A stretch of 63,560 nucleotides of DNA, filler included, from Reclinomonas americana ATCC 50394 (GCA_048213135.1; 15 parts of 15 records of this genome joined end to end with filler, not necessarily neighbours in it), one strand, 5' to 3'. Numbered from the whole stretch's first letter, positions 9,895 through 59,072 are shown. A program made the numbers and translations. The notes: generated by a model from the sequence alone, not told the origin.

Positions 9895-12455
9895 ATGCAC
9901 ACGCGCACAAGCAGCCTTGTGCTGCTGCTGCTCCTTGTCGTCGTCGTGTGTTGTACAGTGGCAACACGTGCAGTTGCGCCCTCCTCTCGTTCTCTCTCGC
10001 GCTCTGTGCACGACGTCTCACTGTTCGCGCGCGCGCAGTTGCCTGCACGCGAGGAGGTGCCGCCTGCCGCTGTGTCACTGGTGTACCAGTCGACTGAGAG
10101 TGTGCTCGATGAGGTCATGCGATTGGCCGAGAGTCGAACTGCGTTGTGGGGCTTGAAGAGCGACGTGGACCGGAGAGTAGAGCGCGGTCAGTCTCTCGCG
10201 CTCACTCACGCAGCAAGTCATCAATATAACACACACACATTGGGCAGATGAGTTGATGCACTGGCTGCAACCTGGTGCCGACGAGCTGGGTGTGACGCTG
10301 CGGTTGCGAGAGGATCCGCGTACGCGAGTCGTGCGCTGTGCGTCGTCCAAGGTGACACGCGTCTTGTCGGTGCGCTGCGCCGCCAACGTGCCAGGCAGCG
10401 ATCTGTGTGTGCCAGTTGTGCAGTGGCGCATTGCGTTGGAGCCGGGAGCGTCTGCGCCACGAGAGGACGCAGTGCGTGCTCTCATTGTGTTTGGCGAGCA
10501 CGGACGGGAACTCGTGTCGACCGAGATCGGCATGTCGCTGCTGGATCGAGTGCTGATGGCCACCGAGGGTCCCTGTGATCTCGACCAAGAGCCACTGGAT
10601 CGGTTCCTGTGGGAGCGTGTGGAGTTTACAGTTTCGTATCCTCGGCGGTCGGTCATCAGTGCCACACCAAACTGATCGATGCTCGCCGATAGATCTTTCC
10701 GCTGGTCAACCCGCACGGGCACCGCACGGCGCGCACCAGCAACGCCTGTTCGCGCACCAACAGCAATCAGGTCGATCTCAATCGCAACTACGAGAAGCAC
10801 TGTTGAGTGGTTCTTGTTGTCGGCTTGATCGCGAGGGGAGTTTGACACATGACTGTGCTCGTCACAGGGCGATCGCAGCATGAGCCCGGCCACGAGGAGT
10901 ACTCTGGCCCATCGGCATTCAGTGAGTTCGAGTCGCGTCTCGTGCGCCAAGCCGCCATGGCCTTTCGGCCGCACCTCTTTGTGTACGTCGTCGTTGCATG
11001 CATCGTGGCCGCCGGCTCCGGAACGAGATCTCTTACATGTGCTTGTTATTCGCGCAGCAACGTGCACTCGGGCGAGTTCTCCTTGTACTCGCCGTACGAT
11101 TACACGAGAGATCCACTGCCACCGGCATTCAACGTCATGAAGGAGATTCTGTCGGCGGCCGCCAATCAAGTACCGTGCCCGCGCTGTGTGATTGGTGCCG
11201 GCGGAGCGGCATCAACCTATGTGGCGTACGGCACCAGGTGCGTCTGCCATCCCTTGTACGTGCGACAACCCTCGCCTCATATCTATCTCTGTCTCTCTCT
11301 CTCCGCACCTCCATAGCATGGACTACATGTACGAGGAGATTGGCGTGCCGATGAGCGTGACTCTGGAGGTGTACAGCCATTCGCAACTGCAGACATGCGC
11401 CGGCTACTTCAATCCACTTTCTATTGAAGAACTCAACACCACCACCTCCTCGTGGACGCGCGGTTGCGTCCCCCTTTTCCTGCATCACCACCTTGCCTTC
11501 TTTCCGTCTATAACACGCACGTGCAGCGATTGTGGAGCTGGCGGTGGGCGTGCACGATCGCCTGTTCGGCAGCAAGACGCTGCCGCTTCCCGGCGGCGAC
11601 AACAGTGCACACCATCGCGTTGCTGAGCAGGTGGTCTCCGCCGCAGCACTCGGCAGCCGCGATTTTGTCAGTGGCTTGTGCGGCGCATCCGATTGCCTGC
11701 TGGGAGAGACGCCCATCACGGCAGAGTGGTACACGTACGTGCCGGCTGTGTTGGGACGCTCTGCGTCGTCTCTCGGTGATTCGACGACTGGAGACTCGTT
11801 GCTGGTGGGCGAGAAGCTCCATCGGCAGCAGTTGATCATCCGCACGCTGGCGGCCATCTCGCTGGGAGCGCTTGCGTTGTTGAGCTATGCCATTTTGAGC
11901 ACGAGGAGATCTGTGGGCTCTGTGAACGGCAGTGTGACACTCGGCGGCGGCGGCGGTGGCGTCGGTGGTGTCGGTACCGCTCTGTCGTCCACGCGGCGTG
12001 CACCACCACTGTCGCGCCAGTTTTCGTCGCGAACATCACAGTCGTATGCTGGCGGCAGTGGCTCCTTTAGCGGCAGCAGTGGCTCACTGGGTGGCGTGGG
12101 AGGTGCGGCTGGTGGAGTTGGCGGCAGTGCCGTAAGTGGCGGCTTGCGACCGGCCAGCTCCGCCACCGCACTGTCATCGCCTCCGACGCATAGCGTGTTG
12201 CGCCACGAGCGTGGACCAGTGGCAATGGTGAGACCAAGCGGCAGCAGCGGGGTGCTGGTGGGCGGAGGTGGTGGTGGCGGTGGTGGCGGCCCTGTAGCCA
12301 TAGGCAGTGTCGGCAGCTCCATCACCGTGCTGCCAGAGGAGACGCCGGTGATCGTGGCCGACGACAGTCTCTTTGACGTGCACCATGTGGCGCGTGGTGT
12401 GCCGTCGAGCCAGTACGACGCAAGTGGCTCCCCATTACGACCATCCAACGTGTAA
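9895..12455 (+). CDS. M14 zinc carboxypeptidase with signal peptide and C-terminal TM segment
   Basis: FGEHGRE (HxxE), RTNSNQVDLNRNYEKHW, YSGPSAFSEFE, NVHSG, GTSMDYMY...LEV; hydrophobic N-terminus; late TM LAAISLGALALLSYAIL. Confidence 0.9.
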
Positions 12456-12616
12456 TAGTGAAGACGTACAACAAGAGGAAAGCAACATGCAGCTGTCGCG
12501 TTTTATTCCACAGGATNNNNNNNNNNNNNNNNNNNNNNNNNNNNNNNNNNNNNNNNNNNNTTAATTAATTAANNNNNNNNNNNNNNNNNNNNNNNNNNNN
12601 NNNNNNNNNNNNNNNN

Positions 12617-15600
12617 AGACGAGCGCACAAAGTGCCATTTCAGTGTACGCGGTCGCGGCATGCCCAGCAAGCGTCGATTGCAAGTCAACAGGATGCGGTG
12701 CTCTCTACGTCGATCGCACACACATGCAGTGAGCTCGTACAGTGTGCGCCTCCACAACCGTGCCAGCAACACACGAACCGCACAGCCAGTGCCACCAGCT
12801 CGGCAATGCTGACGCCCGGGAAGAACCAAGTGTCGATACCACAATGCCGCATGCGCCGGCCACTTCATCCGCCACGTAAGTGAGACAAACAGGCGAAAGA
12901 TCACCGCATCGCACGAAGGGAACGCAACAGTCGACGGAGTGTGGAATCGACGACAAACTTGTGCGGTAGGCCAGCATAGTCACCGGGCGATGGCATGGGC
13001 GGAATCACGTACACTTCGGTGGAGGCCGCACTGTTGGTGGAACAATGAGCACCCTCGCACATAACATCACACCTTATCGGTGCGTCACGCACTTGGCCGC
13101 TGTCAGCACCGCCTCGACTCGATGTCTGCCGACGGTCTCCAGTGACATATCTCGGATGCAGGAGGCCAGCGACAAACCGAGGTGTGAAGCACACTCGGCC
13201 ATCGAGTCAAACAGCGGCAACTACACGAGTGCACGACACGAGTGAGCAGTGCTGCTGTGCAGCACCGTACGCGCCAAGCAGAACGCAACCAGACAGTGCG
13301 CATCAGTGCTGGCATACATGCGCTGCTCGGTAGTCAGGGGTCTGCAGAGAGACGACAGATTGCGTGAACACAAACGCGTGCGTTTCCCCGCCCGATCACA
13401 CGAATAACCTGCGTTCCCAGTTGGAGAGTTGCTGCTGCTTGGAAATGTCGCCGCCGAGGTACACATGACACAGCTCCGACAGCGACACCGGATGTCGCCG
13501 GTTCAGCCGGCTACGCAGATCCAACTCGGGCAACGCGTAGCCTTCGCGCAGATTGCCGAGACTGAACTCAAAGTCGGCAAACACCAGTTGCTCATCGGCA
13601 TCTGCCTGCTCATCCGCCGAACCAGATCCAGACGCCGAGTTCGACGAAGTGATGAGATTCGCCACCTCGGCGAGATCAACAAAGCACGCGGCGCGCTGAA
13701 AGCACGGTGCATGTGGATATGAGCTGCATAGCCGCTGCAAGTCATTATGGAAGCGGTACCCTGCGGCGACGTGGAATGTGAGGTGAATACCTCAAGGCGC
13801 AGAGACCACAGTACGTACCGACTTTGAGGAGAGAGTCACACTCGAACAGACCGGTCAGCAACTCCGTTGTCTCCCGCATATGTGGATTGCTGGCGCTACT
13901 GCATTCTGCATCAGCCTCTGCCGTCTCCTCGGCGCTCTCCATCTCCACAAACGGGCTGCGTGCCAACAAGCGCGGCAGATCCACCAAGTACACGCGGTTG
14001 GGTGTCGCAATTTGCAGAAGCTGCGCACAGAGAGATTAAGATGGCTGCAGAGAGAGAGAGCACGCCCCATGCACTGCCACACACGCACTGCCACTCGCGA
14101 GTTGGGGAAGCAATTCAGCGCCGGCTTCCACTCGGCATCCATGGCGGCAATCGGGGCCTGCAAAAGGTAACACTGTGCCGTGAGAGCCATACACACAAAC
14201 AAGGCACTCTCCAAAACACGCATTCACACCTCGAGGCACGCAGCCACCATCTCCGCCACCTGTTCGTGCGTTTCGACATTGTGGACCGTGACGTGCGCCG
14301 GAAGTGCCAGCACCTTGGTTCCCGGTTCGTCACTCTCCTCGTCTCTGCATACTCGCCATTGAGTGCACGCATGCGTCACCATCAATGGATAGGCCACCAT
14401 CGAACCTCTCCTCTGCATCACCCGTGGGGCGCATGTCGCCAGTGGAGATGACAGTCATCATACCGGTGCAGAGAACCTCGGGTTGACCGGCTGTCAGTTC
14501 ACCGGGCGCCGCCAGATTTTTTCGCTGCAACATCTCCACCGAGTTTCCGTGTGCCCAAGCCGCACGACGAGCGTGCTTCGTACCAGAGACACCCGGTGGC
14601 GGCACAGCATCGCCAGAAGACATGTCTGCGATTGCGACCTCAATCTCCAAGTGCGCCAGGTGGTCCACGTGGAGGATGAAGGCCTCCACTTGCGACGCCA
14701 GGTCGCCGTCACCTCTCGGTTCAACCAGGCCGTCAGCAAAGGCTCGGTGTACCACCTGTCGGGCGTGGCTCGACTGTCCGCAGCGCACCAACTCGGTGGC
14801 CACTGCCTCCAGCATGGAAGTGCGCCAAGCCGCAATCGGGTCGCTGCTCGAACAGTTTTCACAGTACCGACGCGGTGGTTGGTCGTCCACAAACCCATAC
14901 AGCATCTCCACATTGGCGCCGGAGTTGATCAGTCGCTTGGCCACATACCGTTGTGTGTACGACACCAGCTGAGCGGTGGGCGAGTGAGTGTGGGGATGGG
15001 TGGGTGAACAAGGATGTTGAGCGATGCACACATCGTACCGCAGGAAACGCGCACTCCTTGTCGTGGAGACCAAACTCGTGTAGCATGCGACGCGAGGCCG
15101 GCAGCTGCACCGAACAGAGTTGGAATGCAGTTGATAGCGGCCATGATGAATGAAGAAAAAGAGATTGAATAACCTTGTTGACTCGGATCAATGCCTCGAT
15201 CACTAGTTGCGGCACTCCGCGCTGGCTGTACGTGCGAGCAAACTCCATAGCCACATCGTGACGATCCTGTCGGCACACACCAAGTCAGAAGCTCGGCGAT
15301 CCGTGGTGATCACCACACTCGAGTCTCCACGCACCAGTGCGACAATCTCGCGAACCAGCGTTGCCACATCGACCTTGTCAAACAACTCCTCAAAGTGTGC
15401 AACATAGGCCGCCGCTCGTACACAACCGTCTCGCGACGCCTGCATCACCGCGGTCACAATGTCCAACAGTGACACACCTGCGTGATCGTATGAGTCTCGC
15501 AACACACGACCGCGATGCGCGCTGTGTGTGTGTGATTGCAACTGCGCATGTGCTCGTCGCCGTAGTAGTGCACCAGCATGACCCGGAAGACCGCCGGGTG

Positions 15601-16170
15601 CACCTCGCGTGCCAGACGAGCCAGCGCCACTTCCGCGTGGAACCATCTGCATCAAGACAACTCGGATCTGAGCACGATGCACGCACACGCAGCGCACAAC
15701 GCAGATCGACCGCAACTCGTTCCACGACGGGTGCACAGCGTCTGCCTCTCGCATGACACGAGGCAGCACGGCTCTGCACACGACAAAGAACGCCTCGTGC
15801 AACTCGGGCAACTGCGAGGGGCGCGCACAAGACAGTCACATTCCAGCTCACACACACACACACGCTGTGCTGCGGCGAGGCTAAACACCTTGGAGATCTT
15901 GGCGGCGTACTGCACGAACAACTCGGCGTCGTCGCGACAGTGCGGCAGCACACTGGCGGCACTCCATTCACACAACTCGTCGATGCGATCCGTGGTCGAC
16001 TGGTGGTCGCGCAGCACACGCAGCCACTCTCGCAGCAGCTTGCGACGACACAACTCGACTGCGTCGGGCACTTTGGCGGCGCTGGAGCCACTGGTGGCTG
16101 CAGCGGCTGCGTCGCTCATGGACTCTCGAGTGGGGTGGGCCAGGGGACACGAGGACGATGGCATGTACAT
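12617..16170 (-). CDS. EXD3: Exonuclease Mut-7/EXD3/Nibbler homolog (DEDDy 3'-5' exonuclease + Mut7-C); 3' end truncated by gap
   Basis: AMDAEWKP, LQIAT, LLKVG, SLSELCHVYLGGDISKQQQLSNWERRPLTTEQRMYASTDAHCL; Mut7-C FVVDSTLRRLGRRMRHCGIDT...EHRILLTCN. Confidence 0.88.
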
Positions 16171-16426
16171 TCACTCTTGTTTTTACATACACACAAAGAC
16201 GACAGACAAGTCGACGGGAACCCCACATTACGCCGCAGAGAGCGTAGCGTTCAAGGGTGGAAAAAGTAAACATCATTCGTTNNNNNNNNNNNNNNNNNNN
16301 NNNNNNNNNNNNNNNNNNNNNNNNNTTAATTAATTAANNNNNNNNNNNNNNNNNNNNNNNNNNNNNNNNNNNNNNNNNNNNAACAACAACAACATCAACA
16401 ACAACAAAAACAAGGCTTTTCTGTCA

Positions 16427-19400
16427 TCATGGCTCGTCGAGGCGCTGGTCACGAATGGACTGCACCAGGTCGAGAATTCGTTGGGTAGGACCGGCTTCCT
16501 ATAATCACACAACCAAAATAGAGAGATCAGCATTCGCACACAAACAGAGAGAGAATTGAGACTGGCAGCGCACCCGTTCCATGAGCTCCGCCAGCTCTCG
16601 CAGCGAGTACTTGGCCATCGACAGCCGCTGCAGGGACGAATCCATGTCGGCGTACTGCTCGCGTTCCCACGCACTCGACGGCTTGAAATGTGGGAAGTCG
16701 GAGAAGAGTTCCAGCTCACGCAGCATGTTGACCTGCATGCAACCAGCCACATGAACAACAGGCGACCTCCTCATTCAACGGCGAAAGGAAAGCCCCACAT
16801 ACCTCGCCCACAATGTCGGCACTCCGGTAGTCAGCCGACTGCACGCATGCGCACACACATACACGTGAGAAAGAGGAGGGAGAGTGTGAGGAGGAGACAG
16901 CACAACGCACCGTGCTAAAAGTGATTAGATTGTCGAGACATTGCAGGGTGGTCTTCAGCTCCTCCTCCATCAACAATTGGTACTGCACCGCGCGAACTCA
17001 CACGTGTGAGTAACTGATATCAAGCAGAACGAGCATGCACGCGCGCGCACACAGACCTCTTCAACACGCTGCCGCGATTCAGGATCCACCACCAGTGGTT
17101 TGGGCGCCGCTGACGTCGGCGTCGACGCGGCCACACGCTGTGGCGATGCTGCCGCAACGGCTGGTGCTGGTGCTGGCGCTGCCACCGGCGGTGGTGCATG
17201 GTTCGACGACGAGAACGACACCGCCTTCCGAGCCGAATCGTCGCCATGGCCATTGTGCGAGGCCGGCGACTGTTGTTGTTGCTGGTGCGGCGGCTGGCCA
17301 CCACGCGGTGTTGTCTCGCGCGATGTTTGCCTGCTGTGCGACCGGCTGCCATTGGCGCTCCGGTTGCCGCTAGCACTTCCATTGGTGTAACCATGAACTG
17401 GTGACGGTGACCGCCGAGTGGGCGACGGCACCGGCGAGTACCGTGGCGGAGTGGCAGCGTGCGACGAGCGGCTGCGACCCTCGTCGGACTCGATCACGCG
17501 TCCGTGATTCTGCATCACGTGAAGTTCCAGTTGATCCTTGAGACGAAGCAAATCGGTGGTGTCCACTGCGTGCCCATGCTCGGCAGCCTGCGCACACACG
17601 CCCTCCCACAGTGAGATACACAGAGAGAGAGAGAGAGAGCGACAAGGGGATCGCATCACACGCTCACCTTGTCCATCAGCGACACTGCTTCACGGAGCGC
17701 CTCCTGCGTCTCTGCCAGCTGCTCTCGCAAGTCTTTTTCTGATCGCACAGGCACCTCCGTCTGCATTTTTCAGCCACCACGAATGAGTACACACAGTGGC
17801 GATCACGCTCGCACGCAATCCCGCAAGCCACACGAAACCTTGCGCAATGCCGACGCCAGTGTCGTCTTGGTTCTCTCCAGATCGTCGGTGACAGCCTTGA
17901 GTTGCAGTTGTTGCTTGGCCACCAGATCGATCTCGGCCAGATGCCTGTGAGCGCCACATGCGTGAGATTTTACGCGTGGAGGTGGAGCGAGTGACATCGC
18001 CACACACACACACAAACTCACCAATTGTACAGCTTGTTGATCTTCTTGTTGAGCTCCTTGAGCATGCGCTTCAAACCGGCCTTCTCCTGCGTCGGTGAAG
18101 TCGGTGAATCGAGGCCGCCGCGACGCAACACCTGACCGTCGTCAGAGCCCATCGATCCCGATTCATCGTCACTCATTTCCGCACCCAGCCGCGTCGCACG
18201 TTCTGCACAGGCAGTGTGAGTATGACGCGTCGACACAAAGGAGCACTCCAGCATTTGCATACGCACCAACTGCCACACCCAGATCGTGCACCAGGTTCAT
18301 GTAGTCGTCGGGCGCCGCCGAATGTGACGAGTGCGGTGGCGGCAGCAGTGGTGAGCGGTCGCTGGCCGACGACGACTTGGAGACCACAGACTGCTGCACA
18401 TCGACATGCGACGACGCAGCGCGGTTGGGCGACGGTTGCCTGTGCGGCACAGGTGACGCCGTCGTCGCCGACGCTGCCACTCGTCGAGGTGAAGGTGGCT
18501 GTGCGGCGCGTGGTGACGAGCGACGCTGTGGCGACGGCGGCACTGGTTGCGGTGCGCTGGGCTCCACAGGTGGCGACGTTTGCGACTGACGGTCGACACG
18601 GGACGGTGACGGAGCGCGTCGTGCCGGTGCACCATTGCGTGCGCTCGCCGACGGCGAGAAGCCGTCACGTGATCGTGATGGAGACTCGCGACCATTGGTG
18701 GAGACAGCGACCAGTGTGCGCAGAGCCGCATCAGTGTCCACGGCTCCTGCAGACTTGCCGCGACTGCGCGACACCGTGATGAGAGGCGTGCGACGGCGCA
18801 TGGAGCACGCAATGTGAAATACACAAACCGTTGTGATGGTGGCGGCTCGCGGTAGTGAGCTTCCGGCGGAGTTGGTGGACGCTTCTTTGCTGACCGTGGC
18901 TGCACAACGGCTGGTGGCGGAGGCGGAGGCGTCACGTTGGATGATCCATCGGTGGCTACACAAGCGAAAGCATTAGACACACACACATACGAGTGCGTTG
19001 CAATTATGAGCATGCACACCTTGACCATCGATGCGCGTCAGATTCGGCAGTGTGCGGCGCAGCGTCTGTCGATACCCTTGCACGCTACGCAAAGAGAGAA
19101 ACTCATTAGCACGGAGCGCACAAGTCCCACAAATGATGAGTATGTGGGAACGCAACAGAGCCAGCGGATTGCCGCGCAGAATGATCTCCGTGAGTGCGTA
19201 GTTGGCCGACAGCTTGCGCAGCGACAGATGCTCCTCGGGCCCGAGGCAGTTCTGGCCGAGGTCGAGCTTGCGAAGTTGTCGCAAGTGCGCCAGATTGGAG
19301 ACCTTGGTGATCTGGTTGTTGTTGAGCACGAGCTCCTCCAGGTTGGGCGTCTTGCGCAGGCCGTCGATCACGCCAATCGAATTGTGCGACAAGTCGAGAA

Positions 19401-22400
19401 CCCGGAGCAAGCGCAGCTCCTGCAGACCAGACATTTTCGCCAGCTTATTGTGCGACGCGTAGAGGTACTTGAGAGTGTTGGGCAGCGCCGACAGAGTGGC
19501 TGTGCGCAAGCGACAGTCAGTGACGCATCCAGAAACAATAGCAGAGCAAGGGGCAAAGATCGCAACTGAGTTGATTGTGTGAGATGTCCAGCCACACCAG
19601 ATTCGAGGCCGAGTGCACCGCGGGCGGCACCATAGTGAGAGTGCGCTTGGCCAGCGAGAGGCTGCGACCCTCCTCATTCTCCATCTCGCCCATCGACTCG
19701 ACCAGTTCGGCCTCGCTAATGTGCTCGCTTCCACGACGGCGCAACGGCGACGTGGCTGACGTCGGTCGTGGTGGCCGGGCTGAAGTCGGCGACGCGGCGC
19801 GTGTGGCATAGGACGACGGGGTGGTGGAGGCAGCGGCCGCTGTGGGAGTGCCAACTGCACGTCGCGGCGAAGGCGAGGTAGAGCGGCGAGGTGATGGTAC
19901 AGGCGAGGCGCGCTTGTTGTATCCCTGCTGCTGCAGCTGCGGTGGTGACTCGGGCTGATAATCGGCATGTTGCTCGCCGTCATGCTCCCACGGTGACACG
20001 GCACGGTGATCGCCACCGGCACCTCGTTCCGCCACGCCATCGTCGTCGGCCACTGGGATTTCGCGCAGTACCGGCTGGTGGTGTAGCGGCGACGATGATG
20101 CCGGGTGGCCAGTGGGCGAGTGATGGTGTCCAACTCGGTGGCGCGCGTGTGAGTAGCCCGGGGAACCGGCACCAGCTATTTGGCCACCGCCGGAAACAGG
20201 CGACAGTGGACCCCGGGCCTCAGCTTTTGGGTGATGGTGCTGGTGATGGAGGGAATGATGGTGCGGGTGTCCGTGCTGATGCTGAGCCAGGTCGTCGATC
20301 ATGTCCTCGCCCTCGGAGGCCAGCGAACCCTCGCTGCCGTCGGCCAGTCCGTGATCGAGTGACAGTGTGTTGGATATGCTGGCGGGTGCCTCGCGGGCGT
20401 GTTCCAGATCTGCCTCTCCATCCTCGCCATCCTCCTCCACGTCCGCGTCACTCCCATGCAAGCGTCGTACCGCGTGGCCGTTGCGCTCCACCGGCTCATC
20501 ACCCGTGGCCGCGGCTGCCGTCAGCGAGGCCGAGGACGGCACTGGCGTGACGGGTCCACCGGCGCCGTGTGTGGCCTCTCCCGTGGCGGTGGCAGTTGTC
20601 AAGGCCGTGGTGGGTGACGAACGCGACGAGAACAGGCTGATGCGCACGTGCTGCACGGTACCCATGGCGTCGGTGGGGTCGTCGTCATCGTCCTCCGCAA
20701 TCACGGCCGACGACGGAACCTCGGGCATTGGGTTGGACGAACCCACCGTGTTGTCTGTGTTCAGTGTGCCCAACTCGGGCTCATCCGACGCCGCCGTCAG
20801 CCGACTGCCACCAGCGGCGGCACTGGCCGAAGAAGGCGAGCCCGCAGACATGTACGAGCGCGACGACGGCGAACCGACAACCGGATCGTGCCCTTCGACC
20901 GACAGGCTCACTCGACGCGGAACCACAGCCACCACCGCCGCACCCTCTGCCACGGGTTCGTGAACGAGCGCACTCGGCTGTACGACGAAGAAGGTAGAGT
21001 GTGAGGCACATGTTTGTGGAGAGTGGCGGCATAATTGCTTCTCACCGGCAAGCGCGACGACGACGTCGGCGACGGCGGCAGCATTCCAGCGGCCATTGAA
21101 CCGTGCGCAAACGTGACCTTGCTCTTTGGCGGCGCCACTGGTGACATGGGCCGGGCGGCCGACGACGCTGCACCACCGCTGGACGGCATCGAAGGCAACG
21201 AGGCGTGCGTGGCCGAGCCAGATTCGTCGCCCAGCGGCGTGTGCGGCTCCTCTTCCTCGTCGTCGTCACCGTCATGGTGACCACCGTTGGCCTGCTGCAA
21301 TTGCTGGATGAGATAACGCGGCAATACAGAGGGGAGAGAGCAAGGGTACAAAGGGATCGACTTGCCTCTGCGCCTGCTGATGATCGCGCGACAACGAGCG
21401 GCGGTGGTGCCGGGTGGTCATCACGCGCACCACCATTCAATGACACCGCCCCATTTCCGTAGTGATGATGGTGATCGGAATCGCCACCATTCGCAGACGC
21501 TGCTGCTGCTGCTGCTGCTGCTGGACTGACCGCCCCAACAAGTGACGACGGCGGTCGACGAGTGCGAGGTGCCTGCGTCGACGCAATGAGCGATAGATAC
21601 AGAGAGCGCACCGAACGAGCGACCAAGGTCGGACATACCCGTGTGGCCGTGTACAACTCCTCCAGTGCATCCGGCGTGCACAGCGACGTGTGCACACGAA
21701 TGTCACGCAGTGTCTCGTTGTGCACCAACGCATCAAAGATCGCCCGCGCACCGGCATCCCTATCGCCACGGCTTCAGCATGCGTGCACGGCAGACGACCA
21801 AGAAACGCACAGTACGCAACGAGATACGATTGCCCGACAGGTTGATGCTCTCAATGCTCTCATTCTCCGTCAACATATCCGCCACCGCACGCGCCGACTT
21901 GTCGGTAAGCTACCCCCCGCACACACAAACAATGAGCGACGCACACACACATACACGCAGAGAGTGATAAAACACGCTCACCTGATTGAACTTGAGATTG
22001 AGAACCTTGAGCGTGCGATGCGACTTGAGCAGCGGCATCAGCGGCACCACCTCCGCATCCGTCAGCCGCATACGCTTGAGCGATAGCAGCTCCTGCGCAT
22101 GACGACCTTGTTTCATTTGACACACACACAATGAGCGAATCATCATCCAAGCCTTCATGTGAAAGAGTGTGTGTGTGTGTACCTTTCGTGGCCACAAACT
22201 TATCCAGCACACGTCCCACCGACTTGCGTCTTCCCATGGCCAGCTCGCCGACCGCCGACTCCTCTCCATCGCGCCACTCACTCGCCACCGCCTGGAATCG
22301 CTCACTCAACTCCGGCCCGGCGACTCCACTCGTCGGCGTTGCTGCCACGGGTGGTGACACACTGGGCGCAGGCGAGGCGGGCGCAGGACTCTGTGCCTCA

Positions 22401-27395: not shown

Positions 27396-27432
27396 CACAC
27401 AATGAATGCAACTGACATCTAAAATGGTCGCA

Positions 27433-49065: not shown

Positions 49066-51378
49066 TCATCTTGTCGTCGACGACGGCCGCCTGTGCCAAT
49101 TCAGAGTGAATACGGGGACACGAACGCACACACACACACATGCGTGCATGCTGGCCTGGACGCAACGCATGGAGTGGTGAGGGGAACCGACTGAGGTGGT
49201 ACGTTGGCGCGCCAGGAATCGCACCGATGCGCATTGCCTCTTCGCGAGCGCATGCAAACAGTGAGTTTATGGAGGCAAACAAGCGCCTCGCAACAACAAA
49301 ACACACACACCGTCCACGATTTGGTGACTGGGGATCTCTCGATCCTTTAGGTACGCCCTCACATTGTACTGCTCGCCAAAGATGCTCGTGTCGTTCAGCA
49401 CACGCAGAGTACGGACAGCGTCCACCGCTGCATCCACGAACTCGGTAAGAAGGCACGCGAAGGCATGGCGACGAGCAGCACAAAAAGACACACTGCACGC
49501 ACGATCGACAAACTCCACAATCGCGAATCCCTTGCTACCGGCACGCATTTTGGCCACTGGTCCGACACAGAGGCTGAGATACGCCAGCAACTCATACTTG
49601 CGTTCGTCTGCGGTGCGCGGGAAGCCTGTGATGAAGACAGTGCGACTCTGCGCGCCATCAAAAAACGCGCGATGTATGAGGTCCACCGAGTCCTTCCTGC
49701 ACAAAAGTGGTCAGTGTGATGGCGAAAGAAGCGCCAGCCTGGCCAGTTTAACACGTAACTGACTCGGGAGGTACACAGAGCACGAGTCGGTGAGCGCGTG
49801 GTCCACCACCGTAATGCGATTCAGCACTTGCCACAGATCATCTTCAGTCGGTGGCGCGCCAATCGGGATCGTGCGCAGGCGTGTGAATGGTGACAGGGAG
49901 CGTGGTGGTTCGCGCTCATCAGGCGATCGTGCTCGCCGCGGTGGCGGTGGCGACGCCCGCGGACCGGCAAATCGTGGGTTGTCGTGGCGCGGGGGTGAGC
50001 GTCGACCCGGCGGTGAACGTGTTCGCGAATCGCGCCACCCATCCTGCGGATGCCCGTTGCCAGCACGTGCAGGGTAACGATCACGGTGCGGCGGTGGTGG
50101 CGATGCCGATGACAACGGCGGCGGCAGCGGTGGTGGCGGTGGCAAATGGCGAGCTGGTGGTGGCTGGTGATAACTGTGGTGTGGAGGCGGAGGATGTGCA
50201 AGTGGCACTGGAGGTGGCGGCACCGTGTCGCCACTGTACGGTGGTCGTGAGTCCCGTCGTGGAGAAGACCAGCGACCGCGAGGCGGCGCCGCAGATGCCG
50301 ACTGCAGACACACGCACACACACACACACGCAGCGTGAGCATAGAAGCACGTGAGACAAAGAGGAGACGCCGTACACACCTCGTAACGGCGAGCAGAGGG
50401 TGATGCGCCGCCGCCGCCGCCGTAGTCTGGATAATCGCGTCGCGACACCGAATGTGGCGGCGGAGGTGGCGGCGGCGGTGGTGGTGGCAGCGGTGGCTGC
50501 CGACGATCGCTGTCGCTACCACGCCTGTCATACGAGTCGAACGACGAGGGAGCGCGTCTGTCGTCTGCATTTGCGAACCGATCGGGTGGCGGCGGTCGAC
50601 GGCCTTGGTCGCGGTGATCGTGCTGATCGTAGTAGGGATTGCGCTGACGGTGATGGTCTCGAATGTGATGCACTGTCACCACTGGTGGCGGCGGCACTGG
50701 CGGTGGCGGCGGCGGTGGTGGTGGCGGAGAATGCTGACGACGATGATGATGATGATGGTGGTGGTGGTGACGGTGATCGTCGTGATGCTGGTGCGGGTGA
50801 TGCTGCTGCGATGGTGCCGATCGACGCGACTCGTGGTGCGATCGATGACGATCATCACCAGCGCGCTCACCGACAGGCGACGGCGACCGCGGCCGCTTTC
50901 GATCCTGCCGGTCCTTGTGTTCACGCTCACGGCGCTCGTTGTGATTGGGCGAGTCCCACGACGACAGCGGCGACGGACTCTGCTGCCCCGCGGTCACCTG
51001 CAGCGTGTCACCTGCCGCCGCGCCAGTCGATGATGCTGCTCCCTTGCTCGCCACACCCGTATCCTCCGCATCATCCTCCGCCATTCCCACATCGTCCTCA
51101 TCATCGTCATCACGCGCATGTCGCGACGAAGGTGCACCCCCACGCGACGCACTGGTGGCCGCCGTGACCGAGTCGGCAGTGGCTGCACGGCTGGCCGCAG
51201 TCACCGAGGTCACCAGTGTGCTACTGCTGCCACTGCCTCCTCCGCCTCTGCTGCTGCCGCCACCACCACCGCCAGTGCCAGCGAGGGTGGTGGCGGGGGT
51301 GGATGGAGTGGTAGTGGTGGTGGTGTTTGTGGTGATGGCACTGCGCGGGCGCACAACAAAGCCTCCGGGGAACTGCAT
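49066..51378 (-). CDS. RRM protein with long Pro/His/Arg/Ser low-complexity N-terminus
   Basis: RTVFITGFPR...GPVAKMRAGSKGFAIVEFVDPVDA...LNDTSIFGEQYNVR; start and end inferred. Confidence 0.7.
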
Positions 51379-51944
51379 GCAAAATGCATCATCGACGACA
51401 CAATAAGAGACGTGTGTGTTGCATGTGTGTGTGCGTCTGTGTACGTGTGTGTACGTGTGTGTGCCTGAGATGTATGCACACGAGTCACGAACCATGGTGG
51501 TGGTGGCGCTTGAGAATGCTTGCGCGTCGAGATGATACAGGACCAAGTTTTACGACTTGACTTTCTCGACGCTGCATACTCCAGCGTCGTGGCAGTGCAG
51601 ACAAGCAAAAAACGCCCAGTGCACTCACGTGTGTCTAGGCTGCGCTGCTGGTGCTGCTGCACGATTGAATGGCGAAGTTGGCGACAACCGGCGCCGGCAT
51701 GCAAACGCTTTGTATGCACCGCTGCGTGCTTGCTATTGGTCACTGGCAATGCATGAGTACGTCGTCGCAAGGGGGTCGCGCAGTCGTGCTTGCCCACACC
51801 GCACTGCATCAGCGCGAAAAAAACGCGTGCTCACAACGAGAATACCACAGCGGCTGCTGACGCCAGCAGATACACTTGTGCGGGGGGCGGTTACGCCTCC
51901 GCAATGACGACTCTCTGTATTCTCTCTCTCTCCCTCTCTCCCTC

Positions 51945-52165
51945 TCAGTCGACCTTGCTGACATCGACACCGTTTCCGCCGACAACTGCACTGCCATGCA
52001 CTCGGCGCTTCAGGGCGCGCACCGTCGACCACTCCCAGGCCACGCCCGCCAACAGTGCCGTGCACTCCAGCACCACAATGCCCAGCATGCCCCACTCGAA
52101 GGCCGGCGGCACCTTTCGATCCTCCACGAGGTGGAATCGGAAAATCGCTACGCAGCTCCACGTGG
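51945..52165 (-). CDS. Last exon of an unidentified membrane protein
   Basis: Hydrophobic helix GMLGIVVLECTALLAGVAWEW, ending SKVD-stop. Confidence 0.4.
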
Positions 52166-52170
52166 TGAGG

Positions 52171-52171
<1 letters not shown>

Positions 52172-52242
<71 letters not shown>
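52172..52242. repeat. (CA)n microsatellite at contig end
   Basis: ~35 perfect CA units next to the gap. Confidence 0.95.
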
Positions 52243-52243
<1 letters not shown>

Positions 52244-52343
52244 NNNNNNNNNNNNNNNNNNNNNNNNNNNNNNNNNNNNNNNNNNNNTTAATTAATTAAN
52301 NNNNNNNNNNNNNNNNNNNNNNNNNNNNNNNNNNNNNNNNNNN

Positions 52344-54849
52344 CTCTCGGCCGCTGCCTCCACTACCACCGCCACCCACGCCACCGTCCACGCGTGCCAG
52401 TAGTGGCAGTTCGCGAGCTTCACTTGGATCACCATCCTCCGCAAGTGCATTTGCGCTCGCGACTCCCACACACGCGCACACTGGCAAGAGCAGTGACAGT
52501 GACGACAGCACCGACACGGAAGAGGAGGCAGTAGAGGGCACCACCACCACCACCACAACAACAACTGAGAGCGACGAGGGTGTGGTCATCATGTCGGTGC
52601 CTCCACCCATGCCACGGACGACGCATCGGATGAAGGACGATGAGCGCGTGACTGCCACAGCAACCGCCACTGCGACAAGCTCAATGCCAATGGGCGACGA
52701 TGAAGCGTGGTCGGATCTGGATGGCGACGAGGACGACGATGAGGAGGAAGAGGAGGAGGAAGAGGTGTGATGATGGCAGTCAACAGCAGCTGCGATTGAG
52801 CGCTCATTGTGTGTGCGTGTGCAGGGCATGCGGATTCACGTGTCGCGTATTCCCGTGTCGCCGGGCTTGGATGAGTACGCGCACATGGCGGCGCAGGTGG
52901 CGCTGGATGAGAGCGGGCAGCAGCGATCGTCGGTGGCCGTGGAGGCGCAATTGAGACGGCTGGTAATGGACGATCGGTTTGCCAATTCGCATCCGCGGGT
53001 GCTGGCGTTGCTGATGCCGGCCAGTGGAGCGCCGCAAGTGTGCGCCGAGTGCAGTGCGCCCGATCCCGATTGGGCGTCGGTCAATGTTGGCATTTTCTTG
53101 TGTATCGGCTGTGCGGGAGTGCATCGCTCGCTCGGAACACATCTCTCCAAAGTGCGCAGTGTGACGCTGGATGAGTGGAGCGAGGAGTTGTTGCAGGTGC
53201 GTGCAAGCGTGTGCGGTTGTCGCGTTTGAGGTTGCCTGCTCAATAACATTTCGCGATTGCTGATGGCAGGAATTTGAGACGGCGTGTACGCATGACCACG
53301 CGAGGGAGTGGGAGTACCGCCTGCCACCGTTTTGCAAGCCACAGGCGCAGGATGCCAACACCCTCAAGGCCTGGTTCGTGAAGCAAAAATACCAAAAGCA
53401 GACATGGCGACGTCGCGAAGGCGATCCTCCTAAATGGACCAAAGGTCCGTCTGGCGCCACCGTGAGCGTCTCTGCAAGTCGCATTAATAGTTTATGAGGT
53501 GTGCGTGCAGTCATTTATGATGGACCGGGTGCCATGCTATCGCAACGCGCCATGGCCAAGTTCCGACCCGCCGACTCGTTGCAAGTGGTGACTATTGCTG
53601 CTCGCGGCACCGTTCTCCAGGTGTGTGGGCCGCAGTCTTCGTGCACGTGCTCGTGGTGTACTCCCTTTTTCTTTGGTGAGCTCACCGCTCCGGCAGGCGT
53701 ACCCCGTCGACATTAACCACTCGTCGTTCCCCGTGTACGTCGGCACGATTCCCGTCGATGCGCGAGTTGCCATTACCGCACCGCCGTTTACGCCCACAGG
53801 TAACATGCTCTTGCGCACTCGCACACACACTGGCATACTTGTGTTGACGCGTTGCGGGATATGCGTGCTGCAGGTCCGCAACGACGCTCCGTGGTCACCG
53901 TCACCTCGCCCTCCGACGAGAGTCTCCAGTGGAGTCTCACCTCGGACTCCGAGCAGGAGGTGATTGAGTGGGCGTTGTATCTGCGTGCATCGACGTTCTG
54001 GGACGCCTCGGTGCGGCAGTCGTCGCTCGGTTCGCCGGGCGTTCGTGCGCTGCTGGAGGGTCGCCCCGACAACGACATGCTGATGTTGCTGGTGAGTTTC
54101 TCGCTGCACTTGTCCCCTTGTGCTCAGCGACTCACTGCGGCGAGGGGGCGGCAATAGCGTGACTTGAGAATACGTGAAGAACACGTGCATGGCTATCTGG
54201 AGAAGGTCGGCGGGCGTTTCCGGTCGTGGAAGAAGCGCTACTTTGTGTTGCAAGGATGCACGCTGTTCTATTTTGACAAGCAAAAGGTATCCACGCATGC
54301 ATGCCTGTGTGAGAGCACTACCTGCAAGATGTGACTGCTCACGCCACCATGTGCGCTCCGTCGCAGCTCAAACGCCTCAAGGGCAGCATCTCGCTGCGCA
54401 ACTCGGTGACCACCATGACCGACGATGCCGGACGCCACGGCTTTGTGCTGTCCATTTTGACGCACAGCCGCTGCTTCCAGCTGGCCAGCAAGTCGCGCGA
54501 CGACCTGCTACGCTGGAAGCTCGCCCTCGATCAACGCGTGGCGCAGTTTCAACAAGGCGCCCTGTATCCGAACGTTTCGTCCGTTTCTCCCTGTTTCCTT
54601 CTGTTGGTACACACTTTTCTGACAACCACGGAATCACATGCGCAGGGCGTGCCTACATTTGGTCGCTGGACCGGCGTCACGCACTCGGTGGACCTGGTGA
54701 GTGTCGCCGAGCACGCGTACGCGATAAAACTCTTCGACCAAAAAACTCCCCGCATTGCACAGGATGACGGCGATGTGACGGTGGATGGCGGCATCGGCAG
54801 CAGCAGTAGCAGCAGCATAAGCAGCATGGCTACACACGCTCCACCATAA
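52344..54849 (+). CDS. ArfGAP + PH-domain protein; 5' end missing
   Basis: CAECSAPDPDWASVNVGIFLCIGCAGVHRSLGTHLSKVRSVTLDEW; PH domain HGYLEKVGGRFRSWKKRYFVL...LKGSISL...DLLRWKLAL. Confidence 0.9.
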
Positions 54850-55245
54850 GCATAGCACAATTGAGACAAACATGAAACTTCGAATCTCCGCATGTGCGTC
54901 CGGCGGGGATTCCACCGCGCTTTTTTGTGTGTGTTTCAGAGAAGAGAAAGAATGTCAGCCGAGTCTGCCACCCGTCGCGTGCGCATTGTTGCGTCTCCTC
55001 TCACTGCACACACATAGCACGTGCGCGAGTGTGTGTCTCCCTCGTGTGTGTGTCACTGATGCCATGTCAACCCCCTGCAGCACGCCGCGCATCTTGCCCC
55101 CGTCGATGCATCTGCTGCCAGTGGCAGTGGCAGCCTTCCGGTGGANNNNNNNNNNNNNNNNNNNNNNNNNNNNNNNNNNNNNNNNNNNNTTAATTAATTA
55201 ANNNNNNNNNNNNNNNNNNNNNNNNNNNNNNNNNNNNNNNNNNNN

Positions 55246-55730
55246 GAGAGAGAGAGAGAGAGAGAGAGAGATGGGCGATCGAGAGAGTGAGGGAAAGAGA
55301 GAGAAGCGAGGGTGAGAGAGAAGAGAGAAGAGAGTGAGGGAAAGAGAAAGAGACAGTGAGAGGTGAGAGTGAGCTTAATGACAAGGGAAAGAGAGAAAGA
55401 GAACGACTGAGGTTGATAGAAGAGCAGAGGCGACCGACAGACAGACAGAGAGAGAGAGAGAGAGGACGAGAGACAGACAGACAGACAGAGAGAAAGAGAG
55501 AAGAGAGGGCGAGAGAAGAGCGATCGAGACAGAGAGAAGAGTTGGCGAGAGAAGGGCGATTGAGAGAGTGAGGGAAAGAGAGAGAAGAGAGAGCGAGAGA
55601 GAGAGAGGTGAGGGTGAGCTTAATGACAAGGGAAGGAGAGAAAGAACGACTGAGGTTGATAGAGAGAGAAGATGCGAGAGAGAGAGACAGACAGAGAGAG
55701 GGAGAGAGATAGGGAGGGGGAGAGAGGCTC
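55246..55730. repeat. GA-rich low-complexity tract with an internal degenerate duplication
   Basis: gagcttaatgacaagggaa...aacgactgaggttgataga at ~55371 and ~55616; gggcgat(c/t)gagagagtgagggaaagagagagaag at ~55273 and ~55553. Confidence 0.75.
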
Positions 55731-55763
55731 ACAGCGTCGCTCACTCATTCGTCGTGTTCGCAG

Positions 55764-56472
55764 GATGTTGTTCCGGTCGCTTTGCCTGCTGGTGAGTGTC
55801 TCTCTCCGTCCTTCCCCCTCCTGTCTCTGTGTTTTGTTCCATTCTCCCGGACACGTCCGCTCATTGCTTCTTTGCCCCCGCGTATCGCTGTCTCACTCTG
55901 TGGCTCTCATTCCCACTCTCCCTGTGTCTTTCTCATTCTCCTCCGCTCTCAGTCCTACTTGCTGCTCCCCCGGTCACTCTCGGTTGCACCTCTCTTCTCT
56001 CCTTTCCTCTCTGTGCTCGCTTTCTCTCCCTGTCGCATCTGCCACTCACATCTTATTTCTGCTGCCACTTGTCGCCATCTCTTGCCTTGTGTTTCTCTCG
56101 TCTGCGCCCATTTCTCTCTCTCTCTCTCTCTCACTCCCGTGCTCATCTCCTTTCCCCTTCTCCCCTCCCCATCTCGCTCACCATCGACGCGCAGACGACC
56201 GGCGGCCTGACCTCCGACACCGTCCTCTGGAGCACTCTCCAGCACCTCCTCCACCTCCGCCTCCTCCGCCACCTTCTCCACCACCACCAGTTGTGGTTGA
56301 AGAACCACCGCCACCACCACCTCCACCTCCTCCACCACAGCAGCACCATGCGCCTCCCGAGAGACATGCTGTTGCTGTCACACAATCACAGTCACCACCT
56401 CCACCTCCACCACCGAGTCGGCGACTGTTGGACGAGAATGGACGGCTACCGCGACGACTGGACGGGCGATGA
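55764..56472 (+). CDS. 3' exons of an unidentified proline-rich protein
   Basis: Exon DVVPVALPA then GTGAGT donor; terminal exon DRRPDLRHRPLEHSPAPPPP...LDGR-stop. Confidence 0.5.
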
Positions 56473-56494
56473 TGTTTTGTATGATGGATTATAC

Positions 56495-59072
56495 TTACTT
56501 TTGTTCTTCTACTTCCTCCTCATCCTCCTCCTCTATACGCGATGCCAGTGGCACATTGTCTTGCTCCCCCTGCTCGATGTCGTCGCTCTGAGAGTGGCGA
56601 TGAGTGTGCGAGAGCTCTCCACTCTCCAGCAAATGTTGCGTGCGTGCTTACCTTGCCGCCATCCATGAGTGTGTCGAGCTCCACGTCACCGTCTCCGCCG
56701 CTGGCGTTTATGGTGGCTAATGTTGGGCGGTGCTCGATGGCGGCGATGCGTTGCACGCAAATGGCCTCCTTGTCCCAGTCGACGCGCAGCACAAAGAAGA
56801 GCATGGCGATAATGACGACGATCAGCGCGGCGAGGAGGCCGCACCACAGGCCGACCACGCCCCAGTTCTGTGGGGGAAGGGAGAGAGAGGATAGGATGAG
56901 AAGGGGGAAAATGACAAGGAGGAACGAGAACCAAGCTCGCGCGCAAAAAGAGAGGCGGGAACCGCGCGACAGAAGGAACAATGAGAACTGAACTCGCCCG
57001 CATGCAGAGAGTGAAAGAGGGTCGAAATCGAAGAGAACAAGCATTGCAGCAAAGCAAGCGAGCGAACGAGAATCGTTTGCATAGAGAGAGGGAGGTTTGA
57101 CATGCGAAGGGAAGTACCAGAAAGAGACAGAGAGGGTTGATAGGAGAAGGGAGAAACCGACAAGGAGGGAGAATGAGAACACGCAGAGCGAGAGAGAGAG
57201 AGTAAATATGAGTAGGGAAGTTTGCTGCTTGAGAACTGATGTCGCTCGCGGAGAGAATGTTGGTGAGAAGGCAGAAAGCGAAGGGTGCCTAGAAGAAAGA
57301 ATGAGCTCGTACGGCGAGCGCGAGAGAGACAGAGAGGGTTGAAATGGGAAGTGAACGACGAAAGGAGGAAGAATTCGCTGCAAAGAGAGAACGAGAGAGG
57401 GTTGAAACAGAAAGGGACACATCCCACGGAAAGCAGTACGAAAACTGCGCTCAGGAGGGGAAACCACAAAGGTCGCTGCTTAGCAGAGGAATCCGCGTGG
57501 AGAAAGAGAGAGAGAGAAGGGATGGCAAGGGCAAGAGAGCGACTGAATCAAACCCTTGGTTGGACGGAGAATAAGAGAGAAGAAGTGCGAGAGTAGTCTG
57601 GAGGCCAAACATGTCGCTCACCAGGTAGAATGTGAAACTGCAGAGTACGACAAAGGGTGAGCAACGCAGCGAGGGAAACAACGCATGGAGGGGAGCACGC
57701 ACAAGACGCCAAGCGGGGTGCCGACAAGGTAGAATCCCACAGCATGTGCCTGTGTTTGATGCGTGTCAACAACCCCACGCAACCGAATTCACAAAAAGAA
57801 CACTGAGCAGCGTAACAATGGCGCCCTGCGTCGGTTTGCCAAGGCCCTTGAGCATGCCGCCGAGCGTCGATTGCATGCAGTCGCCAAGCTGCGGGGGTGG
57901 TTTCGGTGAGATTCCGACAGTGGCCACAGGAAATCACCACCTCCAACGTACATGCATAATGTAGCCAAAGAGCAGCAGTTGTGCGATCAGCGACACGACC
58001 TCTGGCGAGTCGGAGTACGCGTAACCCATGACGTGACGCGTGGCGATACCGGTGCCACACACCACCACGCCAATGCTCAGCGCACTGCCGACGGCCACAA
58101 ATCCTGCAAGCGAGCGGTGAGGTTAAATAATGCGCTGCCGACCGAGATCATGAAAAAAGAGACAGAAGCGCACCAGAGAACTTGGCATCCGACGGCCGAT
58201 TTTCACCCATGAGATTGCCGACACGCACAGTGGTCGCAATGCTGCGCAGGAAGGAGTAAGCACGCGGAGAAATCATAGCGCGCAAGCAAATGGAAATGTA
58301 CCCGACGCCAAGAGGCAACTGCGGGAAGCACGAGTTAATGACGAGGGCGAGCGAGGAAAAGAGAGGTGACACGCTCGCGCACCATGAAGATCAGCGCCGT
58401 GAAATTGAGGACCACGCTATGCGCAGCGAGTGACTGCTCGTTGATGAGGCCGGCGAGGAAAATGGTCACCTCGAAACCCTGCGCAGTGGGAGAATCATGG
58501 AGGGTTGGTGACTCCCTACAAACAAAATAGCAAAAGAAGAGGACGCACCATGGCCTCGGCCACCAGCATTACCGAGCCAGCGATGCCGATTTGGATAAAC
58601 ACTTTCATATCGGGCCAGCGGAGCTCGGAGCGCGACCAGCCTGCATGGGTCGTGGTGAGCAGGGGAAGAGGAAAAGGGAGGGGAAGGGAGGAGGTGATGA
58701 CGCAACCAAACCACGTCGCCTTGTGGTACTTTTTGAGCACGGTGAACAGATACATGCACGCAAACATGGAAAATCGCTGCGCGCAAGGGTGATGCAGTGA
58801 GCGAGACAAGGGAGCGCGAGTAGGAGGGTGTGTGGGATGAATCGGCTGACCGAAAGGGAGGTGGCAATGGCGGAGCCGATGAATCCGTAGCCGAGGGCGT
58901 AGATGAAGACGTAGTTGAAGACGATCTGTCGGGAGGGGAAGGGCGGAAGGGAAAGGGTGGAGTGAGGGCGAAGAGGGATGAACGGAGAGGGTGAAGATTG
59001 GAAAGGGAGAGATGACGACTGAGATGTTGGGTGAATGACAACAGAAATAGTCGAAACACTTCTGGTGAGTGT

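Follow-up and report, generated by a model that had tools for sequence, protein, structure and literature searches.

A tight class of one-base-displaced GTT donors in Reclinomonas americana and its candidate partner, a second U1 snRNA

Can any splice donor be displaced by one base, or is displacement the property of a particular class of introns? The question is raised by two predicted introns in a 63,560-nt stretch of DNA from Reclinomonas americana ATCC 50394 (GCA_048213135.1; hereafter the window), in which a carboxypeptidase gene appears to use the donor GTTGAGT at 10802 (+) and a MATE gene the donor GTTACG at 57816 (-). A first-pass annotation of the window had taken these as two examples of a general register shift applying to each donor type. 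The analysis described here indicates a tight class of donors, non-G/GTTGCGT, at about a quarter of the predicted introns, and a second U1 small nuclear RNA (snRNA) gene, U1b, whose product is predicted to be complementary to them.

The window consists of 15 GC-rich (~59%), intron-dense eukaryotic pieces joined by N/TTAATTAATTAA spacers. The genome (G000) spans 108 Mb in 16,441 contigs and contains two haplotypes, with second copies of the window pieces at 84-98% identity. A self-training exon-intron model was applied to 677,375 bases, comprising the window and 78 genome stretches (L013-L032, L036-L093). Pieces shorter than 800 nt, genes with fewer than 450 coding nt and the stretch L035 were excluded from the intron model; L035 lies on a 2.3-Mb contig (G000:C1) whose examined part has a GC content of 48% and lacks microsatellites; this contig probably belongs to another organism within the assembly. 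The main model was restricted to GT/GC-AG introns, a free-offset test allowed a movable intron start, and a donor-blind run used no donor information except GT/GC. Junctions and intron counts are computational predictions throughout. Nucleotides of U1, U6 and U6atac are numbered, and the U1 loops named, according to established usage.

An unsupervised two-class mixture assigned 373 of the 1,586 predicted introns in the 677 kb (23.5%) to a separate class, here termed class B, with only 16 introns at a posterior of 0.1-0.9. Class-B donors carry T at +3 (97%), G at +4 (86%), C at +5 (91-92%), G at +6 (97%) and T at +7 (75%), and have G at -1 in 9%, whereas ordinary (class A) donors have G at -1 in 88% and at +5 in 86%. 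GTTGCGT was also the commonest donor 7-mer in the donor-blind run (158/1,480), in which C filled +5 in 214/249 shifted donors as against 238/606 for the ordinary +4 (p = 3e-38). As a genomic word, GTTGCGT occurs 339 times in the 677 kb, compared with 72-103 for A/C/T+TTGCGT, and GTTGAGT 92 times, compared with 40-66 for its controls; GTTACG[TC] showed no enrichment in the same sequence (52 vs 40-52). A predictor-free measure of intron-likeness was supportive for GTTGCGT (147/332 vs 22/271) and gave no support for GTTGAGT (13/91 vs 15/156) or GTTACG[TC] (6/49 vs 21/131). Runs of GTAC/GTTAC repeats at contig ends (window ~39920-40002 and 60790-60850; L103 2326-2416), probably sequencing artefacts, inflated the GTTACG word counts and led to one false-looking donor call at 39937.

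The introns of class B have GT(GC)-AG termini and restore the reading frame, as U2-type introns do, and both classes are present in 107 of the 127 genes with at least five introns. GC donors occur in 30/1,213 class-A and 6/373 class-B introns, and GC-AG introns are predicted in the window at 1356 (+), 21365 (-) and 46605 (+). In 11.5-15 kb of allelic sequence, changes affected 1/90 sites at class-B +3 to +7 compared with 26/478 mid-intron sites (p = 0.04), and of the non-triplet indels between alleles, 28 fell in class-A introns, 6 in class-B introns and 1 in a predicted exon. Among 52 introns compared between alleles, no donor had switched class; a polymorphism within one class, GTGCGT/GTGAGT, was seen at window 3542 against allele C3545. 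Class B is, by these computations, a real and tight class comprising about a quarter of the introns.

The class-B cut lies before the G. When starts at -1, 0, +1 and +2 were scored equally, GTTGCGT introns began at the G in 204/221 cases and at +1 in 12, and the control GTGCGT began at its G in 190/222. Words of the form A/C/T+TTGCGT were used at most 5 times per offset among 72-103 sites. A free base at +2 was considered and rejected, GATGCGT never being used at offset 0 (0/107 sites). Scored with a profile of XPB homologues, offset 0 came first at the two class-B donors of that gene, GTTACGC (75.7 bits, compared with 33.1 at +1) and GTTGCGT (90.9, compared with 22.2); the best identity among the XPB exon homologues was 51%. 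Pfam searches with the first 150 of 365 class-B-flanking exons gave mostly no match. At eight class-B introns the exons on either side, read in their predicted frames, matched a single family at nearly adjoining positions of its profile (KAP twice, XPB twice, glycerol-3-phosphate dehydrogenase, eIF3i and MMADHC twice).

The introns that raised the question, and their neighbours, are as follows.

10802-10867 (+): class-B intron, t/GTTGAGT, with the minority variant A at +5, phase 1, in a zinc carboxypeptidase (M14-like) gene
10631-10692 (+): class-B intron, a/GTTTCGT, in the carboxypeptidase gene, at a junction contiguous in the homologue P0124
11463-11526 (+): class-B intron, g/GTTGCGT, with C after the acceptor
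57750-57816 (-): class-B intron, t/GTTACGC, with A at +4 as a Watson-Crick match to U1b, phase 0, in the MATE gene
58641-58706 (-): class-B intron, g/GTTGCGT, the second in the MATE gene
40620-40692 (-): probable class-B intron, a/GTCGCGT, with C at +3, in the upstream part of an anoctamin gene

Both donors named by the first-pass annotation are present. At 10802 (act/GTTGAGT...CACAG/gg, a 66-nt intron), the unspliced frame stops at a TGA (10804-10806) two codons beyond NRNYEKH, and splicing restores NRNYEKH-W, as had been claimed, in a gapless alignment of 68 residues to carboxypeptidase P0125. The spliced peptide is 47% identical to P0124 over 78 residues, with an aromatic F facing the W, and the exon upstream matches Peptidase_M14 in Pfam. 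This pair was the only stop-free one among the eight best-scoring GT/GC pairs (74 donor/acceptor pairs, donor -12 to +24). It had been described as the only GT before the in-frame TGA, which holds for the sequence past the conserved DLNRN motif; a further GT, at 10771, could be used only with loss of that motif, by inspection beyond the scored range. The other haplotype (allele C3546) retains the 10802 donor and the donor-blind model also calls it; the carboxypeptidase homologues and the second haplotype thus support the predicted donor. The 10631 donor is polymorphic at +4, with GTTTCGT here and GTTGCGT in C3546, and the C after the acceptor of the 11463 intron means that the donor G must be intronic.

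At 57816 (att/GTTACGC...CACAG/gca, 57750-57816), the intron has a single AG within 45 nt at its acceptor and measures 67 nt, compared with a median of 68. Three other in-frame GT donors compete, at 57801, 57792 and 57783; with them the intron would shrink to 52, 43 and 34 nt, below the 5th percentile of 57-58 nt; the donor-blind model chose 57801 with a wrong long intron. In the other haplotype the donor is retained and the intron carries an insertion of 1 nt. A search with the MATE exons found no homologue covering this junction, and Pfam MatE matches were restricted to two exons upstream, so that frame, intron length and haplotype, and not homology, support the predicted donor. Another MATE intron (56868-57621, -) is unusually long (754 nt) and C/T-rich, and sequence near its downstream side has partial matches elsewhere in the genome (C265, C12253). 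The GTCGCG donor at 40692 had been called ambiguous. There, GTCGCGT with a CAG acceptor leaves the frame open, whereas the rival donor GTCACA requires a GAG acceptor, a type seen at ~1% of acceptors, and of the two GAG options one is deleted in the allele; a search for homologues of the anoctamin exon gave 2 weak matches. Judged from the site itself, GTCGCG is now the likelier reading, although the sample as a whole has no excess of GTCGCGT donors.

The displacement itself is real and extends to the exon side, where class-B positions -1/-2 match ordinary -2/-3 (chi-square p = 0.1 and 0.75). Its supposed generality, in contrast, did not hold up. Class-B donors comprise 279 GTTGCG, 17 GTTGAG and 8 GTTACG, and donors of the GTGTGT type have no shifted excess: ordinary GTGTGT, GTTTGT and GTATGT number 78, 48 and 23, and their shifted counterparts 6, 1 and 1. 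A shifted +4 to +7 logo matching the ordinary +3 to +6 logo had been predicted, whereas the two are unlike at every position (p = 2.5e-20, 1e-70, 1.6e-8 and 1.1e-6); C fills class-B +5 in 92%, compared with 38% at ordinary +4, and the donor-blind ratio of GAGT to GCGT is 13:158 in shifted and 69:135 in ordinary donors (p = 3e-10). The free-offset test gave an excess at the G for GTTGAG (23 vs 4-6), GTTTCG (30 vs 2-6) and GTTCCG (9 vs 0-2), a weak one for GTTACG (6 vs 0-3), and none for GTTGTG (17 vs 7-17) or GTCGCGT (2 vs 2-4). Further, 187 of 545 GTT donors are in the ordinary register, with G at -1 in 178 and at +5 in 158. The donors at 10802 and 57816 are tolerated rare variants of one tight motif and not evidence that every donor type shifts. 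The tightness of the motif agrees with a second U1 snRNA.

Two U1 types were found in the genome, a canonical U1a with the 5' sequence AUACUUACCUG and U1b with the 5' sequence AUACGUAACUU.

G000:C429:9347-9500 and C479:4310-4463 (L001, L002), outside the window: U1b gene, two identical copies that are probably alleles
C343:5715-5887 (L003), outside the window: canonical U1a gene, one copy assembled, with its promoter inside a gap

The U1b arm differs from that of U1a at positions 5, 8 and 11. U1b matches Rfam RF00003 over its full length (64 bits, E = 5.8e-14; U1a 63.7) and retains the single-stranded 5' arm, the U1-70K loop, the U1A loop, the Sm site and stem-loop IV. Its copies show 0/154 differences, compared with 52/2,432 in the flanks. 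At -66 it is preceded by the element CCCACAA, which is common to U2, U4, U5, U6, U11 and U6atac at -62 to -72; the element or a one-base variant occurs there in 9/10 snRNA loci, against a background of 0.0008 per 15-nt window. CCCACAA precedes both Sm-type and U6/U6atac genes and is a possible handle on further small-RNA genes, such as U4atac. Searches of other genomes for look-alike windows of U1b found none, and a U1b-like pattern match in a metagenome (L134) was rejected, as it lies in an intron of an unrelated gene and has no Rfam match.

Predicted duplexes divide the two intron classes between the two RNAs. Median energies on class B are -8.5 kcal/mol for U1b and -1.4 for U1a, and on class A -3.3 and -6.0; U1b is predicted to bind better than U1a at 98% of class-B and 13% of class-A donors, while at 87% of class-A donors U1a is predicted to equal or better it. 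With C9 of U1b on G+1, class-B donors form a mean of 6.75 Watson-Crick and 1.5 wobble pairs. In the +1 and normal registers, respectively, U1a forms 4.9 and 3.0 pairs with class B, and U1b 6.75 and 2.0. The class-B C+5 mismatches U1a in either register. By donor, the U1a median is -1.4 for GTTGCG, -1.5 for GTTACG and -4.6 kcal/mol for GTTGAG; reading by U1a appears unlikely for the first two and possible for the third. U1b and U1a energies are -7.2 and +0.7 kcal/mol at 57816, -6.5 and -2.0 at 40692, and -4.7 and -3.8 at 10802, where U1a has 6 and U1b 5 Watson-Crick pairs in the +1 register. GTTACG thus points to U1b, and GTTGAG could be read by either RNA. The U1b gene and its complementarity to class B are computational results; its expression and its binding to class-B donors are what we infer from them.

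The best explanation, and one that we hold to be reasonably probable, is that there are two classes of U2-type introns, each with its own U1 snRNA. Ordinary donors, G/GT[G/A/T]NGT, would pair with canonical U1a, and class-B donors, non-G/GTTGCGT (~24%), with U1b. In the latter duplex, U1b would place C9 on G+1, A8 and A7 on U+2 and U+3, its nucleotide U6 on G+4 (as a wobble) or A+4, G5 on C+5, C4 on G+6, A3 on U+7 and U10 on A-1, so that the helix sits one base deeper into the intron while the cut stays before the G. GTTACG would be a perfect partner of U1b, and GTTGAG would forfeit the G5-C pair and be matched about equally by U1a in the +1 register. Ordinary U2 machinery would handle the class-B branch site and 3' end. 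The single U6 would next take over the donor, its C42 and A41 most likely pairing with G+6 and U+7 while one extra base is looped out; this U6 step is the least supported part of the mechanism.

The CT[CG]A[CT] branch motif is present in 261/373 class-B and 810/1,213 class-A introns, branch distances (Kolmogorov-Smirnov p = 0.81) and intron lengths (p = 0.50) do not differ, and acceptors are alike; these shared features indicate that U2 serves both classes. The commonest branch-like motif is CTCAC (34-37%) and not CTRAC, despite a canonical pairing sequence in both of the U2 snRNA types found. These (199 and 216-217 nt; L094 on C14, and L095/L096 on C409 and C371 1501-1717) share the branch-pairing sequence and differ in their 3' halves. 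A U2-derived RNA gene adjoins the second U2 (L096 ~2460-2670, -), with the promoter element, Sm site and 3' stem-loops kept and the branch-pairing region missing; no matching copy was found in a stretch from the other U2 locus (L138). As a candidate donor reader this RNA was rejected, its arm binding class A and class B alike (-5.5 and -5.8 kcal/mol) and being equalled by 17.5% of random arms.

U6 was found as one sequence in three identical copies (Rfam, pattern and BLAST searches), and Prp8 and U1-70K each as a single locus with two alleles; SNRNP27 is present. On class B in the normal register, U6 forms Watson-Crick pairs at 0% of sites for A41, 0% for C42 and 8% for A43, whereas in the +1 register C42 is paired at 97% and A41 at 75%. 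Cleavage is reported to fall five bases upstream of the G:C42 pair, with a -1 exception as the only one in the available text (PMC11162779).

Several points weigh against the two-U1 explanation. All intron counts come from a self-trained predictor, which by construction partly sharpened the two-class logo, and donor-blind values are lower than those of the mixture (C at +5 in 214/249). The commonest base at +4 is G, a wobble partner, and not the best-pairing A, so few donors being GTTACG as to number just 8; further, in binding to class B the U1b arm is equalled by 1.5% of 11-mers drawn at random from the genome. Both U1 types fall under the Rfam gathering score of 69.5, and zero differences in 154 nt at ~2% flank divergence are of modest significance only. 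No second U6, Prp8 or U1-70K that could explain a +1 U6 register was found in the genome, and such a register is without precedent in the literature examined, the available text of PMC11162779 giving -1 only.

One rival is a hybrid third spliceosome, in which U1b and U2 (perhaps the second U2 type) define the intron and a CC-type U6atac, with U4atac and U5, takes the donor. The genome holds the parts of a minor spliceosome: a CC-type U6atac (L097/L098 1501-1632), a canonical-arm U11 (L101/L102 1501-1654) and a weak U12 candidate (L099/L100), whose helix Ia strand is GAUC as in U2, where the Rfam consensus has AACU, with a compensating C in U6atac. Canonical U12-type introns were matched 164 times genome-wide (L107-L131), compared with 12 for the control, and among the matches listed ~93/100 begin with AT, most having a CCTTGAC branch site. 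U4atac and U1C were not found in searches that are no proof of absence. A single pattern match to a U6atac with the canonical box (two alleles) was discarded as a purine-rich sequence with a 13-bit partial match. Canonical U6 barely pairs class B in the normal register and the compensating exonic G is missing, whereas G15 and C14 of U6atac pair, unshifted, with 92% of class-B donors at +5 and 97% at +6; U6atac can also form helix I with U2, and U12 carries the GAUC of U2. We had regarded the U6atac box as co-evolved with class B and demoted this idea, the box being the published CC variant, which occurs in many lineages, is called hard to explain and is widespread in species not known for such donors (PMC2396436). 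The +5/+6 match is already explained by U1b, C13 of U6atac would favour G at +7, which is seen in 3%, and ATTGCGT is not enriched (72 vs 99 and 103), although most U12-type matches listed begin with AT. Class-B branch and 3' features are ordinary, with CCTT[AG]A, as in the U12-type branch site CCTTRAC, in 0.5% of class-B and 0.7% of class-A introns, a candidate search of the genome did not find U4atac, and the available part of a review on major/minor cross-talk has no mention of such a hybrid (PMC8329584). Displaced U6 pairing is favoured over the hybrid, which is unlikely. Were it true, class B would be a substrate for the unexplained CC-type U6atac, and major and minor parts would be mixable in nature.

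Distinctly unlikely is that U1b is no dedicated reader but either serves both classes as their main U1, on one and the same physical motif and with the first GU fixing the cut, or is little used, with proteins defining class B. U1b has 5.1 Watson-Crick pairs with class A in the normal register, its G5 matches the commonest class-A +4 base, U1a is assembled in a single copy with its promoter in a gap, and Mastigamoeba reportedly has one U1, which carries G5 (10.1101/2022.06.08.495308); against this, U1a is intact and equals or betters U1b in predicted binding at 87% of class A, and U1b has a mismatch at the G+1 of class A. A +1 register open to every donor type, as the first-pass annotation supposed, and read by canonical U1 would fit the displacement of the whole logo and the near parity at GTTGAG (5.9 Watson-Crick pairs for U1a and 6.2 for U1b in the +1 register), and the register is known in human (PMC4856993). 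It is contradicted as a general rule, and quite improbable, in that the donor types shift disproportionately, U1a is mismatched by the prevailing C+5 (median -1.4 kcal/mol) and the genome has a better-matched U1; it may still hold for the GTTGAG minority. A cut after the G, giving introns that start with UU, would align class B with class A except for U at +1, and the sup-39 suppressor U1 of C. elegans pairs with UU introns and raises the use of UU and -1 sites (PMC11098459). It is very improbable given the frames (204 vs 12 for a start at the G), the homology of XPB and carboxypeptidase, and the near disuse of A/C/T+TTGCGT although 12% of class A lack G at -1. Just as improbable is that class B is the footprint of an intron-generating element. 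The first-pass annotation had denied a single motif spread by such an element: one dominant motif there is, and no generator is evident from families, target-site repeats or gene clustering. Class-B phases are flatter (138/126/109 vs 530/456/227, p = 7e-5) and a very old burst would leave no sequence similarity, but non-self matches occur in 6/373 class-B intron bodies (class A 73/1,213), direct repeats of at least 4 nt across the ends in 3/373, and terminal inverted 10-mers in 12/373 compared with 21/1,213, with no family evident, and the introns are not clustered by gene (chi-square 145.8, df 126). Also, the position of the 10631 intron is common to a related organism. P0123, a 197-residue orthologue matching window 10250-10803, reads through a 20-residue insert (V...Q) exactly at that intron; judged by the first codons of this insert, the donor there would be of the ordinary type, in contrast to class B here. 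P0123 ends NRNYEKHC, like the unspliced 10802 frame; should a stop codon account for this ending, the intron at that position would begin with GTT and follow a T. These sequences hint that existing introns were converted to class B and that a relative has GTT donors.

A U1 register shifted by +1 is said to have been originally described, in human, by Roca and Krainer in 2009. Human atypical 5' splice sites (5'ss) in this register (PMC4856993, PMC9311317) resemble class B in that the 5'ss/U1 pairs are displaced by one base, with GU at +1/+2 and the cut before the G. They use canonical U1 and are an exception, whereas here ~24% of introns are concerned, with C at +5 and a complementary second U1 gene. 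The sup-39 U1 is reportedly changed at position 8. It acts at unc-73(e936) (PMC11098459), being altered to pair U where G+1 is normally read, and raises the use of -1 GU and UU sites; that is a laboratory allele acting on a mutant site, whereas class B is natural and genome-wide and its frames put the cut before the G. U1 arms that have co-evolved with donors are reported as ACAAAC for GUUUGU in Entamoeba and ACGUAC for GUACGU in Mastigamoeba (10.1101/2022.06.08.495308). As there, the U1 5' arm fits the donors of the genome, and U1b has the G5 change of Mastigamoeba; those are single U1 candidates in the normal register, whereas here a variant one base out stands beside a canonical U1. What sets the present case apart from these systems is its scale and the presence of two U1 RNAs side by side.

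Two major 5'ss classes, AG//GUNNN and NN//GURAG, have been described (PMC11732430), and a three-class fit found this split inside class A. Class B is like the U6-side class in having no exonic G, but it lacks both the exon-side AG and G+5 and fits neither in the normal register. With U12-type introns (PMC2396436, PMC10639083) class B shares C at +5, no exonic consensus and flatter phases, in a genome that has U11, a U12 candidate, CC-type U6atac and canonical U12-type introns; it differs in lacking the donor RTATCCTT complementary to the U11 arm and any AT-AC form and in its U2-type branch sites. A tandem donor of STAT3 shows that U6 pairing can move by one base, at one human site and in the opposite direction, -1 (PMC11162779). 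In the literature searched, with most subscription journals outside its coverage, no published case of a second-U1/GTT-donor class was found.

If two U1 RNAs do coexist and divide the major introns in different registers, this spliceosome would be arranged in a new way and would amount to a suppressor-U1 experiment found in nature. Having neither G at +5 nor an exonic G, class-B donors contradict the rule of a cut five bases upstream of G:C42, which opens thousands of natural sites to tests of what fixes 5' cleavage after U1 leaves. A gene finder that has learned from ordinary donors would misplace the starts of about a quarter of this genome's introns.

The window as a whole and its further introns are listed below.

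1-63560: 51 class-B among 169 predicted introns (37 GTTGCG, 5 GTTTCG, 3 GTTACG, 2 GTCGCG, 1 GTTGAG, 3 other)
656-727 (+): class-B intron, c/GTTGCGT; a PQ-loop repeat regains its PQ dipeptide on splicing at the G
1594-1669 (+): class-B intron, c/GTTTCGT, in the PQ-loop gene; flanks match PF04193 positions 4-24 and 26-45
5486-5575 (+): class-B intron, c/GTTGCGT, in a PP4R3/SMEK gene, the downstream exon beginning with a base other than G; flanks match PF04802 positions 173-236 and 241-305
38755-38827 (-): class-B intron, c/GTTGCGT, in the anoctamin gene
39503-39573 (-): class-B intron, c/GTTGCGT, in the anoctamin gene; both flanks match PF04547
42066-42136 (-): class-B intron, c/GTTGCGT, within a RING finger, with A after the acceptor
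4978-5038 (+): counter-example, an ordinary-register GTT donor, ag/GTTGGA, with G at -1 and +5

The exon after the 656-727 intron starts at position 20 of the PQ-loop profile. Directly upstream of the PQ-loop gene lies a tRNA-Leu(CAA) gene (window 199-280, +).

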